A stretch of 20,000 bases of DNA from Parvularia atlantis (Eukaryota), in assembly GCA_943704415.1 (NCBI GenBank), contig CALSCO010001118.1:54228-74227 (forward strand), written 5' to 3'. The translations under genes were made by a program, and so were the position numbers. Below the pieces are notes generated by a model. That model did not search any database, was not told the origin of the DNA, and saw only the letters and a list, made by a program, of their open reading frames with translations. Of this stretch, positions 1 to 20,000 are shown one piece after another; position 1 is the stretch's first letter; the number at the start of each line of letters is the position of its first letter.

Positions 1-1770
1 AGCAGCGTGCGGCCGGCATCAAGCACACGCTCGGCGCGGCCGAGAACGACATTGACCAGATCGAGCTGCGAAAGTACCAGCTCGAGCGCCTGCGGTACTA
101 CTACGCCGTGGTCGAGTGCGACAGCGTCGCGACGGCCGTGTCGCTCTACCGCGCGTGCGACGGACTGGAGTACGAGAACAGCGCCAACATGATCGACATG
201 CGCTTCATCCCGGACGACGAGTCGTTCGCGGAGCTGGCACCGCGGTGCGCTTGGACGTGGCGCTGCCAGCCCGCGGCGGCCTGCTGACGGCGTGCCCGCA
301 GCGATGTCGCGACGCATGCGCTCCAGACGTACGAGCCGATCCCGTTCCAGACCAAAGCGCTTCAGCACACCAATGCACGTGCACCTCCGCCGCCCCTCGC
401 CGCTTGCTCGCTGACCGTGCCGCGCCGCGCAGGCCGACCTGACGTGGGACGACGACGACCCGGAGCGCGTGCGCGCGACGCGGCGCAAGTTCACCAAGGA
501 GGATCTGAAGACGATGGACTTCAACGTGCGGGCCGTGCGGGTCGGGCGGTCGTGCGGGGCTGTGCGGCTGAGTGCGCGTGCAGGCCTACGTCGCGACGTC
601 GGACAGCGACGACTACGAGGACGACGAGGGCGCGGCACCGGTCGTCGAGACGGTCGCGCCGGTCGCGCCCAAACCGTCAATGGGCGAGCGGCGTGCCAAA
701 TACCGCGCACTGCTGGAGGAGCTCACGCCCAAGGTTATGTCACGATATGCGGTCCTGCCGCGCGCAGCTGATGCGCGGGCCGCCCGCAGGCGCAGCCCGA
801 GCAGGAGATGGAGATCACGTTTACGACGGGCCTGTCGAACGTGGCCGCGAGCCTGCTAAAGAAGAAGAAGGCCAAGAACGTGCGTGCGCCCGCGCGTGGC
901 CGCACCTGCGCGGCTGAGAAGAGGGCGCACGCGCAGGCCGCAGCCGACAAGACCGTGTGGGAGACGTACCTTGAGAAGCGCAAGGAGAAGCGCAAGGAGC
1001 GGCGGCGGCAGGTCGCCAAGCCGTCCGAGGGCGACAGCGCGAGTGAGGCGTCTGCGGACGACGAGAACGGCGACGACGACGCCGCGGACGACGCCGCCGA
1101 GTCGCGCACGGCCGCCCTCGCCCACGGCAGCAAGGCCAAGCCCGACCGGCGCCAGCGTGACGTCGAAGCCGAGCGGCGCCGCGCCGCCGAGCTCGAGCTG
1201 CTGCTGCTGGACGAGCAGGCGCGGTCGGGCAAGGTGCGAACGCGCGCGGGGGCCTCGTGCGACTGTGCTGACACGCGCACACACTCGTCGCGCCAGCACT
1301 TCCACCTGCGCGAGCTCGTCAAGGCCGAGAAGCTGCGCGACAAGCAGGACAAGAAGCAGGCCAAAGGCAGCCGGCAGTCGGCGGCGGCCGACGCGCAGCG
1401 CGACTTTGCCGTCGACGTGGCCGACCCGCGCTTCGCGGCCGTGTACAACTCGCACCTGTTTGCGATCGACCCGAGCGCCCCGCAGTGCGTCTCGTCGTGC
1501 CGCGGCACCACCGCGCCCACGCTGACCGCGCCCCACGCCGCGGCGTTGCGCAGGTTCAAGAAGACCAAGGGCATGAAGGCCATCATCGACGAGCGCCAGC
1601 GGCGCATCCAGGCCGCGCCGGTGTCGTCCGCCGCGCCTGAGCCGTCGCCGTTCTCGCGCCCAGCCGCCGCCGCCGCCGACGGGCGCAGCCTGTCGCAGCT
1701 CGTCGCCGCCGTGAAGCGCAAGAGCGGGACCACTCGCGCGAAGGGCAAGCGTTCGAAAGTCGATGTGTGA
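1..1770 (+). CDS. ESF1: Pre-rRNA processing protein ESF1, 5'-partial, 7 introns in window
   Basis: Spliced translation gives [20 protein letters not shown]...CDGLEYE...DMRFIPD, ALQHTN|ADLTWD, MEITFT and C-terminal [17 protein letters not shown] (NUC153-like). Introns 245-301, 375-432 (GC-AG), 526-583, 734-789, 880-936, 1234-1296, 1485-1553; TGA ends at 1770. Confidence 0.93.
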
Positions 1771-7116: not shown

Positions 7117-9066
7117 TCATTTGGCCGCAGCTGCGACTGCAGCGGGCTGGTCGCTCTTCATACGAAGACACTCGAGCATTTTCTTGACGGCTGCAGCGTG
7201 ATCCAGGATACTGGCGCTAGTCCTCTTGCTCGGCTTGCGGGCGCCGCCCGGCCCGGGAGAGGCATCTGGGATCTTCGACACCTTGCCGAAATCGATGAGC
7301 ACTGCCTTTTGGCGGCCTTGAGCATCCTTGTATAGGCCGACATGCCGCCACGTGAGGTCGTCGTGACAGAAGCCGCTTGCCGCAAACTTCAACACAGCTT
7401 CCTTGGCGGCCTGTTGAACATCGACACCCTCGTCAGGCTGGCTGTTGCCGCACATCTTCATGAACGGCATCAAAAGCACCCTCTTGCCCATCAGCTGCAC
7501 AATGCGCACGCCACGGACACCCCACACGTTACTCCAGATGTCCGCTTCTTTTTGGAAGCTCGCGGTGCGATCGTTGCCGTCGTTGCGGGGAAATTTGAGC
7601 ACACATATGTGTCCATTGGTGGCCGCCGCAAGCCAGACGCGTCCACTGACGCCGTCCCCAAGGTGGTGGAGCAGGTAGAATGTCGTGCAGTGCCGCGAGG
7701 GCAAAGGCCACATGGTCGCTTGCCCACTGACCTTGGGTTGCTTCCACGTCCACGAGTTCTTGCTCACCAGAATGACGCTGCGCTGGTCACCGAGAAGATC
7801 GTCTACGCCTTTGGCCACTGAAGAAGACATCATACGCAGGGCAGATGCAATCACCAGCACCGTGTCCGGGTCGCTGGACTCGTAGACAGACGAACCATTC
7901 ATTGCCCGACGGCTGTTTGACTTGGGTGTCACGTTCCCGTCCACTTCGTCCCCGTCCCCGTCCTCGTCCTCGTCCCCGTCCTCGTCCTCGTCCCCGTCCT
8001 CGTCCTCGTCCTCGTTTTCGTCCTCGTTAGTTTCCTCATGACCATCATGCTTGTCGTCAGTCTCCGACACCTCGTCAGGCTCCTCATTGTCAGCCCAAGA
8101 CGGAACCTCGTCGAGGATGCTGCGCGAGAGTTTCGAGTCAGTCGTCGCGGTGGTGCTGAAACGGTCGTCCAGTGGCAGAAGTTGGAAGATGCGCCACTGT
8201 GTGTACGTGGTTGCAATGCCGATGACGTTGTCGAGACCATAGAAATTGCGAAGGCGGTGCATGTAGTCATACAGTTGACCTGCCACATTAGTGTCGCTCA
8301 AGATCTTGTCCTTTGGACGCTTGATCTCAAGGACGCCCACAGGGATGCCGATGCCGTTCTTCAGCACCCAAATGTCCGCTCGGTCGCCGAACACAGACAG
8401 CTCGTTCTGAAAATCGAGTCTAATGCCCTGCGGTAGGATGGAGTTGGCCGCGAGCACGGCCTCAATGTCTTGAAGAGCATTCTTCACGTAGTTGGCCACG
8501 TCGCTTTCACTGCCGTACGGAAGAGCAATATCTCCCTCCGAGTCAACACCTGGTCGCTGAAGATTCTCGTATGTGACCCACAGGGCACTGCGTCGAAGCG
8601 TCTGAATGTCAGCTTTCTTGACAGTGGAGACGAAGCTCCACTCCCTGAGCTTGGCTGGTTTATGCTTCTTGCGCTCCGTGTTCGTCGTGGCAACTTGGCC
8701 AACTGGGTAAGGCGACATTGGCGGCAGACCCTTGTCGATAAGCTTGCGCATGCTGTCGTCAATAGGCGCGGCGGCGGGCTGAGGCGCCAGCGCTCGAATG
8801 GCCTTGAAGAGCTTATTCCGCTCTCCAAACGATACTCGCAGATCACGCAGCACTTCCATGAGAACCTCGCTCGTCAAGTCAAACAAATCACTGCCCTTGA
8901 TGTCCTGCTCGCGGAATCTGTGCACGACGTCTTCGCCGTACCCATTGGACGTCAGCCATCTGGCGACGTCGTCCTTGTTCCAGTCGATGACTTTATCGAT
9001 AGCGAGCACTTTCAGCTGCGAGCTGAGTGCGTCGGCGGAAGGCGCAGTAACCGCCTTATCGCCCAT
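7117..9066 (-). CDS. Intronless SAM-domain + PD-(D/E)xK nuclease-fold + kinase-like protein (Crinkler/RHS-type effector architecture), 649 aa
   Basis: SAM: WNKDDVARWL...FREQDIKGSDLFDLT...L..L.VSFGER.KL. REase-like: SESDV...E...ADIWVL...GVLEIKRP...GQLYDYM...GIATTYTQWR. Kinase: LGDGVSGRVW, VLK, E in FQKEADIW, HDDLTWRH, VLIDFG. Single exon, visibly lower GC than its neighbours. Confidence 0.8.
   Translation of the reverse strand: MGDKAVTAPSADALSSQLKVLAIDKVIDWNKDDVARWLTSNGYGEDVVHRFREQDIKGSDLFDLTSEVLMEVLRDLRVSFGERNKLFKAIRALAPQPAAAPIDDSMRKLIDKGLPPMSPYPVGQVATTNTERKKHKPAKLREWSFVSTVKKADIQTLRRSALWVTYENLQRPGVDSEGDIALPYGSESDVANYVKNALQDIEAVLAANSILPQGIRLDFQNELSVFGDRADIWVLKNGIGIPVGVLEIKRPKDKILSDTNVAGQLYDYMHRLRNFYGLDNVIGIATTYTQWRIFQLLPLDDRFSTTATTDSKLSRSILDEVPSWADNEEPDEVSETDDKHDGHEETNEDENEDEDEDGDEDEDGDEDEDGDGDEVDGNVTPKSNSRRAMNGSSVYESSDPDTVLVIASALRMMSSSVAKGVDDLLGDQRSVILVSKNSWTWKQPKVSGQATMWPLPSRHCTTFYLLHHLGDGVSGRVWLAAATNGHICVLKFPRNDGNDRTASFQKEADIWSNVWGVRGVRIVQLMGKRVLLMPFMKMCGNSQPDEGVDVQQAAKEAVLKFAASGFCHDDLTWRHVGLYKDAQGRQKAVLIDFGKVSKIPDASPGPGGARKPSKRTSASILDHAAAVKKMLECLRMKSDQPAAVAAAAK
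7945..8025 (-). repeat. Acidic coding tandem repeat (DEDE/DGDE)n
   Basis: Plus strand reads tccccgtcctcgtcctcg repeated; encodes EDEDEDGDEDEDGDEDEDGDGDE between the nuclease and kinase domains. Confidence 0.85.
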
Positions 9067-9395
9067 ACTTGAGCTGCTACCCGGGGCTGTTGGCCAGCTG
9101 ACGGCCGTGTGAAGCCGCCGGCGGCGGAGATGAGTCGCTCAGATGACGACCGCGACGGCTGCTGTTTCCATTTCAGCAACAGATGTCTCACGCGCAGCTC
9201 AGCGCACCTTCCCTCCCCTGCACACGTGTAGGTGTGCACTGTCTGTTCGAGACTACGGTGCGGCGGTGGTGCTCAGACGGGTCTGGAGCCGCGGCGCGCC
9301 GGGTCAAGCAAATGACCGTTACACTCTGGATGATTCCCGAAAACTCTCGATCATCCTGCATGAGGAGCGTTCGCGCTCAAGGCGCACCCGCGCAG

Positions 9396-16300: not shown

Positions 16301-17163
16301 GCGCCGTGCCCGTCGACGGCTCCGTGGCCAAGTACATCGTCGACGTGCTGCTGTACTGCGAGCCCGGGTCGAGCGCCAACGGGCGCATCCCCACGCCGGC
16401 CAAGCCCGGTCAGAAGGGCGAGATGTTGGTGCGTGCAGTGCAGTGCAGAGCGGGACGACGGCGGGGCGGGCGCCAAGCAGACGCGCGGCGCCAGGCCGTG
16501 CCGGTCATGCTCAGCACGCTCGACGGCGTGAGCTCGATCCGCGTATACATGAGCAAGGACGTGCGGCCGCTCGACAGCCGCCAGGCCGTCTACAAGGCGG
16601 TGCAGGTGCGTCGCGGTCGCTGCGTCGCGGTGTGCGCTTCTCATGCCGCGTGCCGGGCGCAGGAGGTCAAGAAGCGCTTCAACGAGGTCGTGCCGCTGCT
16701 GGACCCGATCGAGGACATGAAGATCGAGGACGCGGGCTTTAAGAAGCTGCTGGCGGTGCGTGGCGCGCGCCTTTGTGACATAGCGGCGGCGCCTGACGGT
16801 TGTGCGCGCGCCAGAAAATGGAGACGCTCGAGAAGCGCCTGAAGGAGCACACGCTGGCCAAGGACCCGCAGCTCGCCGCGCTGTACGACGCGTACGAGGG
16901 CAAGGTGCGGCCCATTCTCCGCGGTGGGTGGCAGGTGGCGGGCGCGGCTGGTGGGTTCCGGGGCGCGCCGCAGCCCGATGCGTGCCCGGCTCATAGGCGG
17001 CGCCGTGCCGAGCTGGGCTGGGGCGTGGTGCGCAGAACAGACGCGCGCTGCTTATTACGAGCGCGGGGCGGGGTCTGCTCTTTTTGCGCCCTGGTCTCCG
17101 GCTGTGCTCTTGCAACGGCAGCCACACGCTTTCTCTCCCCCGCGCTCGCGCATGCGCGCACTC

Positions 17164-17243
<80 letters not shown>

Positions 17244-18363
17244 GAGCGTGTGCGCGAGCGTGCACTCGCGTGCGTTGACCGGGCGGCGCATTGTGCGTGC
17301 CGTCCCGGTCCGCACGGCGCCGGCTCAGCCGGTCGCGCAAAAACGGGTGCAACACCAAGTCCCGGCCTCGCGCCGGGGCGGGTCTCTTTGGCGAGCCCTG
17401 TGCGCCTCCGCCATACACAGAAGCTCTTGCGATGACGCCCACAGCACCCAAACCCGCGCTGACACGCACCCCCCGTCCCAGGTCCGCCTCAACGCCGAGA
17501 TCAAGGCGCTCAAGAAGGCCATCCGGCAGGCCACGTCGATCATGCAGATGGACGAGCTCAAGTGCCGCAAGCGCGTGCTGAGGCGGTGCGTGTGTGGCGC
17601 GCCGGCGTGGGGAGCACCGCGCTGACAGCTACCCAGACTCGGGTACACAGCGGCGTCGGACGTGATCGAGATGAAGGGGCGTGTCGCCTGCGAGGTGCGC
17701 CTGCGCTCGGCCCGCGCGCGACGGGCTCGGCACTGAGCGGCTGGCGTGGCGCAGATCTCCACGGGCGATGAGCTGCTGCTGACCGAGATGATTTTCAACG
17801 GCGCTTTCAACGACCTGGTGCGCCGCCGTGCCGGCCGTCGTGTATCGGCTGAAGCGTTGTGCGCACAGGCCGTCGAGCAGGCTGTTGCGCTGCTCTCGTG
17901 CTTTGTGTTTGACGAGCGCAGCGACGAGCAGCCGCGGCTGCGCGACGAGCTGGCCGGCCCGCTGCGCATGATGCAGGAGTCGGCGCGCCGCATCGCGCGC
18001 GTGTCGCAAGAGTCCAAGCTCGTCGTCGACGAGGAGCAGTACGTCGCGTCGTTCCGGTCCGAGATGATGGACGTGGTCTACCAGTGGTGCAAGGGCGCCA
18101 AGTTTGCGCACATCATCGGCATGACCGACATCTTCGAGGGCAGCATCATCCGGTGCATCAAGCGCCTGGAGGAGCTCCTGCGGCAGATGTGCGCTGCGGC
18201 CAAGGCGATTGGCAACACCGAGCTCGAGAACAAGTTTGCCGAGGGTGCGCTAACGCGGCGTCGTCGTGCGCTCGCCCTGCGCTGACACGCGTGCGCGCGC
18301 GCACGCCCAGGCATCACGCTCATCAAGCGCGACATCATCTTTGCCGCCAGCCTTTACCTGTGA
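13330..18363 (+). CDS. MTR4: Exosome RNA helicase MTR4 (SKIV2L2/Dob1), 24 introns
   Basis: [73 protein letters not shown]/arch region and C-terminal [13 protein letters not shown]. 23 introns are 45-66 nt; one is 577 nt (16905-17481). Confidence 0.97.
16961..17129 (+). ncRNA. Intronic box H/ACA snoRNA (MTR4 intron 20); 3' pocket predicted to target LSU rRNA just 5' of the sarcin-ricin loop
   Basis: Hairpin 16963-17033, H box AGAACA 17034-17039, second hairpin 17047-17122 with pocket UAUUAC/UUGCAAC, and ACA at 17124-17126, exactly 14 nt from the upper stem. Confidence 0.8.
17165..17242. repeat. (AC)39 microsatellite
   Basis: Perfect dinucleotide repeat of 78 nt inside MTR4 intron 20. Confidence 0.99.
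17261..17446 (+). ncRNA. Second candidate intronic box H/ACA RNA
   Basis: Stem TGCACTC/GGGTGCA (17261-17267/17345-17351) followed directly by ACACCA (ANANNA, 17352-17357). 3' hairpin has a GGGCG/CGCCC base and GAGC-CTGTG/CACAG-GCTC upper stem; ACA at 17441-17443 is 14 nt from the upper stem. Confidence 0.55.
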
Positions 18364-18416: not shown

Positions 18417-18742
18417 ATGTCAGAGGCCCAAAGGCTCGCCGCATTGCGCGCGCGAATCGGTGCGGTTGTCGGCGCACTGCACGGGCGTCGCGCTCACCGC
18501 CGCCGTCTCGCGCAGACGCCGCCAACGCGCGCATCGACGCGAGCGGCGCCAAGCTGGCTCAGCTGCTGGCGGTGCAGAAGGCCGTGAACGAGGTGCGCAC
18601 ACTGCCAACCGCAACTCGCCGATGCACCTGACGCGGCGCGCGCACAAAGACAATCGAGCCGTTCCGCATCGCGTTCAGCATGGGCGAGCGCGTGGCGTTC
18701 GACGTCGCGCAGGGCGACAGCGGGCGCGGCGGGGCATTGTGA
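18417..18742 (+). CDS. Small 70-aa coiled-coil protein, possibly DASH/Dam1 complex subunit Hsk3-like
   Basis: Exons 18417-18459, 18516-18592 and 18650-18742, with typical introns, give MSEAQRLAALRARIDAANARIDASGAKLAQLLAVQKAVNETIEPFRIAFSMGERVAFDVAQGDSGRGGAL*. The gene model is good; the family call is tentative. Confidence 0.65.
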
Positions 18743-18787
18743 AGCGGCACGGTACACAAGCATATGGATATCACTAGCTCCGTTGCG

Positions 18788-19737
18788 CTGCGGGGCGGGG
18801 ACACGCTCAGCCCTGCGGGTGCTGCCACGCGCGCGTGCACGGAGGAGAGGGAAGGGAAGGAGGGGCAGATCTCGCGCGCGTTTGACTCATCGATCTCGGA
18901 TGCACGGCCTTGTGAGCAGTGGGCCGCGCGGGCGGCGCCTCCGCGGCACCCCCGTGCGACACAACCGAGCCGCACCACCGCGCGGCGCCCGCCGCTTCAT
19001 CCGGCCCCGGCACGGCCCGCCACCGCGAGCCGCTCGACCGCGCACCGCTCGCATCCGTCGGGGCACCGCCGCGCGACGCGCCTCGCACCGCCCCGCCCCC
19101 ACCGGCGCAGCATCCGCAGGCGGCGACGGCCGGGGCAGCCCCCGCCACGGCGCCGGCATCTGGCAGACGGCCCCCGTCGCAGCCGCGCCCTCCCGTCCAC
19201 GCCGCTGCCGTCCGCGCCGCACGCCCGCCGCCGACGCCGCGCGCCGAGGCGGCAGGCGGCGCACCCGGCACGGCAAGCACTGCCGCACCGAGCACACCGG
19301 CCGCGCCCGCGACGCGCGACGACGGACAGCAGGGACGCGCAGCGGGGCGCGGCGACGTCGTGGGGGGACGGCGCGCTTGCAGGAGCCCGCTCGAATTGCA
19401 CAGCGCGCGCGAGCGGGAGGGAACAACCGCCGGCCCTCGTCGCCCGCACCGCGCCGGGCGGGGGGAGCGGCCGGCCGACGACGCCGCGCAGACGGGCCCC
19501 CGGCACGGCTGAACGGCGCCACGGGACCGATCGACAGTCGCGGCGAGCAAGACACGCGCCGGCGCAGCGGCGACTGAGCGGGACGGCTCGCGCGGCAGGG
19601 GCGGCACGGGTGCGCACGTGTGCATGGGCCGCCGCGGCGCGCCGCCCGTCGTGCGCGGCCTCCGAGGCGGACTTAAGGTATTTGCGCGCTTGGAGGGAAG
19701 GGGGCGAGCGCGAGCGGCAGGGCAAGGAGAGGCGCAC
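18788..19737 (-). other. 950-nt intron of an apparently non-coding host transcript (or 3' UTR)
   Basis: Minus-strand donor GAG|GTGCGC at 19737, branch-like GCTGAG at 18811-18806 and acceptor CCGCAG at 18788, all matching the local splice consensus. The flanking exons have no convincing ATG-initiated ORF. Confidence 0.55.
18867..19690 (-). ncRNA. Giant (~820 nt) H/ACA-class pseudouridylation guide candidate for LSU rRNA (yeast U2266 / snR84 site)
   Basis: Terminal stem GCGCGC/GCGCGC; guides UACCUUAA (19680-19673) and GAGUCA (18888-18883); upper stem GUC-CUCGGA/UCCGAG-GAU; AGA at 18872-18870, 16 nt from the pocket; A-poor, G/U-rich interior. Confidence 0.65.
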
Positions 19738-19853
19738 CTCGTGGCGGTCGAGGGTCGAGTGTGTCACGGTAAATTAATCATGCCGGGTGCCACAACTGCA
19801 GGCTCACGCCTCTTGCAAAAGTGCCTTTTTAAACCTGAACTGAACTCCTTGTG

Positions 19854-20000
19854 TCACTGTGGAGCCGAGTCGTCCTTGGTGGCACCTTTCTCCGGGCCCG
19901 AGGCAGCCTCAGGGGGTTCCCCCCGCATCACGAGCAGTGCTCGTGGTTCTTGAGATAAGCCAGGCCTGTTCCTGTTCAAACCAGACGCGATGTCCTTGAT
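19854..20000 (-). CDS. Probable 3' end of an unknown protein entering from the right edge
   Basis: Open minus-strand frame IKDIASGLNRNRPGLSQEPRALLVMRGEPPEAASGPEKGATKDDSAPQ* in lower-GC sequence; too short to identify. Confidence 0.35.
   Translation of the reverse strand: MKDIASGLNRNRPGLSQEPRALLVMRGEPPEAASGPEKGATKDDSAPQ

Follow-up and report, generated by a model that had tools for sequence, protein, structure and literature searches.

A predicted giant single-hairpin H/ACA-type guide RNA for LSU rRNA helix 69 in the nucleariid Parvularia atlantis

The minus strand of a 20,000-nucleotide stretch of Parvularia atlantis DNA (the window), GC-rich and with short GT-AG introns, carries what is probably a single-domain H/ACA-type pseudouridylation guide in which a rod of ~300 bp replaces the short upper stem, and whose predicted target is the uridine of LSU rRNA helix 69 equivalent to yeast U2266. 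The modification is old and well known; the surprise lies in the architecture. If real, the element would show that an H/ACA pocket works with its two halves nearly 800 nt apart, and that an opisthokont, too, can have a guide with a single hairpin ending in AGA, which has been described chiefly in trypanosomes, Euglena, and archaea. It would further explain why Rfam and length-capped snoRNA finders would miss protist guides for conserved sites, and would offer a design from nature in which one small protein-bound clamp stabilises a long RNA.

The element was first noticed in a preliminary description made from the letters of the DNA. All the motifs listed there, including the lower stem, the guides, and the AGA, are in place on the minus strand, and the parts of the predicted RNA are as follows.

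18867..19690, minus strand: predicted guide RNA of about 824 nt, with putative ends
19684..19689, minus strand: lower stem, 5' strand, 6 bp, with an A directly before it; pair probability >0.99
19672..19680, minus strand: 5' guide, predicted to form 8 bp (19680-19673) with rRNA 3' of the target U-N
19672 (G), minus strand: possible ninth pair of the 5' guide, or else closes the upper stem
18922..19660, minus strand: predicted apical rod of ~300 bp built from short helices, with a median of 4 bp and the longest (19 bp) at the apex
19276-19280, minus strand: loop of the apical rod in the predicted fold
18903..18921, minus strand: small predicted side hairpin, giving a three-way junction above the CUCGGA/UCCGAG helix
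18883..18888, minus strand: 3' guide, predicted to form 6 bp with rRNA 5' of the target U
18874..18879, minus strand: lower stem, 3' strand, in the predicted fold
18867..18872, minus strand: AGA box (18872-18870) and three further nucleotides (UCU), at the offset of ACA-UUU in the counterpart L103 (below)

The guide halves lie 784 nt apart on the minus strand, in line with the ~785 nt first estimated. Co-folding of the two ends, which had been proposed from their complementarity, is recovered in the predicted minus-strand fold, where the lower stem has a pair probability above 0.99 and the CUCGGA/UCCGAG helix one of 0.87-1.0. Between the lower and upper stems this fold leaves an internal pocket, and holding the pocket open is predicted to cost 2.5 kcal/mol. 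Set against the rRNA of other eukaryotes, the 8(9) and 6 bp of the two guides flank an unpaired U-C of LSU helix 69, as the proposed geometry of 6+8 bp and two unpaired nucleotides had implied. The AGA box stands 16 nt from the target and the top of the 3' guide, within the 14-16 nt at which an ANA box is expected. The two hairpins and box H (ANANNA) of H/ACA snoRNAs are lacking: upstream there is neither an H box nor a 5' hairpin, only a C/U-rich run, and downstream there is no closing hairpin with an ACA, the ANA triplets at 18771, 18765, and 18740 following no suitable hairpin. Unpaired C/U-rich tracts at 18845-18866 and 19690-19705 (minus strand) border the hairpin and may serve to insulate the fold, or else show where trimming stops.

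Comparison with Rfam had been suggested as a check. No snR84 or other H/ACA model matched the element, nor did any family at E<=1; snR84 is presumably represented in Rfam, and an insert of 784 nt may defeat a model of its type. The sole match over the 20-kb window was a spurious miRNA on a CA repeat.

The 16-nt target motif, the complement of both guides, was found at no fewer than 83 loci in genome contigs, most with the same flanks. Twelve of 16 such loci scanned with Rfam were LSU rRNA (5 eukaryotic, 7 archaeal) and four had no LSU match; with one eukaryotic LSU copy the duplexes are of 9 bp and 6 bp. The conservation of this site in the LSU of other organisms suggests helix 69 as the target, and the unpaired uridine, in the numbering that we take to apply, is yeast U2266, as first proposed. 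This assignment agrees with Neurospora ACA20, which is listed as the snR84 counterpart and has closely similar guide halves (PMC2780460). Pseudouridine 2266 is guided in yeast by snR84, the guide that the preliminary description had named, and is conserved in human (PMC2794176). The yeast pseudouridines of helix 69 are at 2258, 2260, 2264, and 2266 (PMC2794176; bioRxiv 10.1101/2024.02.02.578723). A register aimed at the U2264 equivalent was rejected by eye, as the 3' guide would then form 4 bp only, with a U-U mismatch. Nine matches to the target motif in viral contigs are not rRNA. Five of the target-motif loci (L014, L016, L036, L067, and L086) are eukaryotic LSU rRNA in assemblies filed as bacterial, probably through contamination.

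Pockets of this kind arise readily when the guide halves may lie anywhere. In a scan that left the insert free up to 1000 nt and drew on 1,756 rRNA U contexts, the window gave three pockets of 14 bp, against ~2.2 of at least 14 bp per shuffled window (12 shuffles); with an expectation of about 2 per window, the pocket alone proves nothing. The base of the rod is set by the rod independently of the pocket. When the two basal strands were shuffled 300,000 times, 433 trials (0.14%) reached at least 14 bp there. Of the uridines in rRNA, only a few percent carry a modification, which lowers the base-restricted chance to about 1e-4.

The structured insertion that the preliminary description had mentioned is in fact one rod along its whole length. 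From 19690 to 18867 the minus strand is predicted to fold into a single rod of −583 kcal/mol, with about 323-326 bp (323 nested pairs) and 2 hairpin loops. Forty dinucleotide shuffles had a mean of −538 kcal/mol (sd 7.7) and never exceeded 180 nested pairs, 40 arm-wise shuffles reached 246 at the deepest, and the deepest of 48 other strand-windows of the 20 kb held 176. The element is 83% GC and, as already remarked, poor in A (61 in 829 nt). Alignment of one arm to the other scored 277, compared with a mean of 186 and a maximum of 220 in 200 shuffles; the arms have diverged, the alignment holding 85 mismatches and 56 gap columns beside 254 Watson-Crick pairs. The apex is paired as well as the base, which is more than simple closure of a pocket demands. 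Its most probable origin is an inverted duplication that arose long ago in the apical loop, from which the rod then grew.

The two strands of the rod are not equivalent. The plus strand is predicted to fold into a structure of −471 kcal/mol with 9 loops, 112 kcal/mol worse than the minus strand. In arm-to-arm alignments scored with no G·U bonus, G·U pairs outnumber A·C 39:5 along the rod (basal 9:1, middle 12:1, apical 18:3); over the whole the ratio is 42:12 (p=5e-5), and the weakest of four scorings gave 35:13 (p=0.002). Were a DNA inverted repeat to decay neutrally and symmetrically on both strands, G·U and A·C would arise equally. We infer that the minus strand is the RNA strand, because an excess of G·U is expected from selection on an RNA fold or from transcription-linked, strand-biased mutation; the excess could reflect such mutation in a transcribed region and not selection. 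Run X3 holds two 151-nt pieces over the 3' part of the element, in one of which 19025 has U for C, a change under which the predicted pair is retained. As evidence of expression this run was discounted, since it also holds an unspliced piece and may be DNA. A search of metagenome contigs with a 21-nt match to the 3' end returned no long form in relatives, and hence no covariation.

A search with a gapped pattern of the two guides found in metagenome contigs what appears to be a relative of ordinary size. The pattern matched at least 117 loci, nearly all by chance, of which 115 had enough flank for folding; among the 115 scored matches listed, L103 had the best fold (−23.1 kcal/mol versus −15.3 for the next). 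Its insert is 47 nt, compared with 784 nt in the window element, yet the spacing is the same (6-nt 3' guide, 3 nt, 6-bp stem, 1 nt), and both have GUC after the 5' guide; outside the guides themselves, none of these features was fixed by the pattern. The 6-bp stem of L103 has another sequence and is still paired, and is followed by ACA-UUU where the element has AGA-UCU. The locus lies in AT-rich, apparently non-coding DNA, and a possible 5' hairpin and AGA-type H box can be made out by eye ahead of it. Positions 310-478 (plus strand) of L103 look like an apparently unannotated two-hairpin H/ACA RNA, a predicted guide for the same helix 69 site; an Rfam scan of 20 of the pattern loci, L103 among them, gave no match. 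L103, although metagenomic and picked after the fact, is the likely normal-size counterpart of the element, and the comparison suggests that the hairpin in the window is the terminal domain, its AGA-UCU being ACA-NNN in variant form. The single hairpin ending in AGA that the preliminary description had proposed fits both the sequence and the L103 offset, while AGAUCU could instead be a degenerate H box. L157, a second pattern match, was rejected for its weaker fold and bacterial-looking coding context; it too has GUC after the 5' guide, apparently by chance.

On one side the minus-strand element is bordered by a high-copy repeat and on the other by a small plus-strand gene that converges on it, in a setting with the following features.

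18417..18742, plus strand: convergent three-exon gene of ~70 codons, two introns spliced in run X2
19333..19703, unstranded: stand-alone contig of run X2, covering the 5' arm, with one end 14 nt beyond the lower stem on its upstream side
19730..19740, minus strand: possible splice donor (intron start 19737), its 11 letters identical to the RNA-verified donor at 17695
18788..18810, minus strand: candidate branch point and acceptor closing a putative host intron of 950 nt
19770..19781, minus strand: AT-rich patch upstream, candidate promoter element seen in the sequence

The repeat begins at about 19806, ending 116 nt upstream of the element, and in run X1 has a summed depth of ~110,000 against 184 for the rod, which is covered at roughly single-copy depth by a spanning contig. 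In runs X1-X3 this repeat end (19806-20000) joins many different flanks. A 48-codon minus-strand ORF without a Pfam match ends in the repeat near 19853. The convergent gene starts ~55 nt past the MTR4 stop, and neither of two exons scanned matched Pfam. Run X2 is guessed to be RNA; it comes from one study and is unstranded, and all eight introns that it crosses here are spliced out. Its contig for the convergent gene extends to 18903, into the last 37 nt of the guide, and may be plus-strand mRNA. Cover in X2 is absent at 18904-19332 and 19704-19805, holes that prove nothing; no X2 contig spans the element, and the 3' end is not visible in contigs. Runs X4 and X5 proved to be of other organisms.

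The signals at the flanks raise the possibility that the guide is intronic. The putative donor lies 48 nt upstream of the element, and the branch point and acceptor ~60-80 nt downstream. Such donor and branch-acceptor signals occur 3 and 6 times, respectively, in 6,962 nt of antisense background, giving a joint chance of ~0.002 when calculated by hand and after the fact; contigs of the runs examined contain no spliced joint across the proposed intron. The predicted fold would shorten the 950-nt intron to ~134 nt; most introns of this genome measure 51-66 nt. We consider it slightly likelier that the RNA is cut from a 950-nt intron of a non-coding host than that it is transcribed on its own.

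Several other readings of this stretch were weighed. The element might be a relic, a once-normal guide inflated by fold-back duplication and now inactive, with some other RNA making the modification. The want of an H box and second hairpin and the replacement of ACA by AGA would suit such a history, and a 5' domain or promoter could have been lost to the nearby repeat; the arms, however, are much diverged while guides, stem, and spacing are intact, and part of the element is present in the RNA assembly of run X2. We give this reading a small probability. It is improbable, too, that the RNA has two domains, the rod being the 5' hairpin, AGAUCU a degenerate H box, and a second hairpin following, as in yeast snR84. 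In support, the pocket of snR84 is in the 5' domain only (PMC2551606), H boxes in fungi vary at their sixth A and have G at position 2 in nearly 80% (PMC5824354), and the presumed H box of L103 also ends in U. Yet ~25 unpaired C/U bases follow the element, the three ANA triplets named above are the only ones within 300 nt downstream and come without a hairpin starting near the box, the ACA at 18740 is antisense to the stop codon of the neighbouring gene, and in L103 it is the terminal ACA that takes the offset of the AGA.

There is a slim chance that the rod is another long hairpin RNA, a small-RNA precursor or a decayed fold-back element, whose base matches rRNA by accident. The frequency of 14-bp pockets in shuffled windows with a free insert allows this, and the reality of the rod does not depend on what its ends do. 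This reading is opposed by the 0.14% obtained at the rod base, lower still for a known pseudouridine site, the matching geometry of L103, the near single-copy depth in X1, and helices that are mostly short. Telomerase RNA, SRP RNA, RNase P/MRP, and snR30 were rejected as identities: there was no Rfam match to the element, and neither a TTAGGG-type template nor a GGAA loop, which we take to be diagnostic motifs. A protein-coding region, or a structure in a plus-strand UTR, is very improbable. ORFs of 198-344 codons run over the element on both strands, and the neighbouring gene's contig enters its end, but at 83% GC long ORFs are trivial. None of six ORFs over the rod matched Pfam, and the 261-codon minus-strand ORF had no homologue among 7,985 scored candidates. 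A+T by codon position is 0.21/0.18/0.18 in the rod versus 0.36/0.62/0.07 in an MTR4 exon, and the three-base periodicity of rod composition is weak (p=0.023). A coding region, one of the findings that would have overturned the preliminary description, left no sign, and the deficit of the plus-strand fold speaks against a UTR structure.

We return to the single-domain guide for helix 69. In the predicted structure the rod would fold back, bring the guide halves together, and close the pocket; pairing along the rod would be expected to persist, since without this folding back of the insert the pocket does not close. Cbf5, Nop10, Nhp2, and Gar1 would then bind the lower stem and AGA, as with an ACA box, and would protect the 3' end three bases beyond the AGA. 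Helix 69 would thread into the pocket, where the target U would be converted to pseudouridine. A bolder and rather doubtful extension is a dual-function, single-domain giant, in which one H/ACA base clamps a ~780-nt cargo kept along its length for a second job, as a double-stranded scaffold, a source of small RNAs, or a device making the 950-nt intron spliceable. This design was absent from our searches, and such guides may be missed in many genomes since finders cap the distance between guide halves.

Yeast snR84 is about 550 nt in length. Together with Neurospora Nc ACA20 it shares with the element the helix 69 target (LSU pseudouridine 2266 and 2228, respectively) and the guide register (PMC2794176; PMC2780460). 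Both are described with H and ACA domains, unlike the element, which is without an H box. ACA20 is 160 nt and guides from its ACA hairpin (PMC2780460), whereas the element is ~824 nt; snR84 guides from its 5' pocket (PMC2551606), and the element has no Rfam match to it. The single-hairpin H/ACA-like (AGA) guides of trypanosomatids have a perfect stem I of 5-8 bp after an A, 1-3 nt to the AGA, and a target 13-16 nt from it (PMC2613932), and the element falls within these rules with a stem of 6 bp, 1 nt before the AGA, and a target at 16 nt. These guides are, however, 57-91 nt with a short apical stem, and the ~824-nt element is in an opisthokont. The euglenozoan likeness remarked on earlier holds only as an analogy, the host being a nucleariid amoeba, of the sister group of fungi, and not a euglenozoan. 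In the window, a 125-residue exon of the neighbouring MTR4 helicase is 100% identical to the EukProt record labelled 'Nuclearia_a', and the second-best match reaches 80%.

Inflation of a guide in one lineage is also seen in yeast snR86, an H/ACA RNA of ~1 kb whose Neurospora counterpart is ~180 nt (PMC5824354), but there the added sequence is found 5' of a guiding 3' hairpin of normal size and not between the guide halves (PMC2551606). In fungi, 90% of H/ACA RNAs fall between 148 and 266 nt, and the element is about four times as long as is usual; their ACA rarely varies, with AGA for ACA rare, and their H boxes often begin AGA (PMC5824354). RNAs with one hairpin and one box are reviewed for human, archaea, and trypanosomes in PMC6984369, where human AluACA RNAs are mentioned, and include the predicted single-hairpin H-box RNAs of Ascomycota (intergenic structures 1, 3, and 4 of Gao et al.; PMC8216456). 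The Ascomycota RNAs differ in their length of 92-139 nt and in their predicted targets, and no activity is shown for them. Searches of the literature on Parvularia and snoRNAs gave no description, and those on long insertions in H/ACA RNAs nothing that describes the element, nucleariids being absent among the matches listed. PMC13183374, PMC7038934, PMC2603021, PMC5033589, PMC3239182, and PMC9122591 have no bearing on the structure of the guide. Neither guide halves this far apart nor this RNA seems to have been described in the literature found; a precedent could lie in the primary papers on the structure of snR84 or in the external supplement of PMC5824354.

Two other features of the window deserve mention. 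Among introns of 51-66 nt, MTR4 has one of 577 nt (16905-17481, plus strand), in which two predicted hairpins lie on either side of AGAACA (17034), a canonical H box, and an ACA comes after them at 17165, where a CA repeat also starts; a run X2 contig covers 16895-17132. The intron is a possible host of an ordinary intronic H/ACA RNA, for which the partial rRNA set offered no convincing target. On the minus strand, 7117-9138 is an intron-free ORF of 673 codons and lower GC with SAM and DUF5898 domains, which we take to resemble the polymorphic Crinkler-like families of early fungi.
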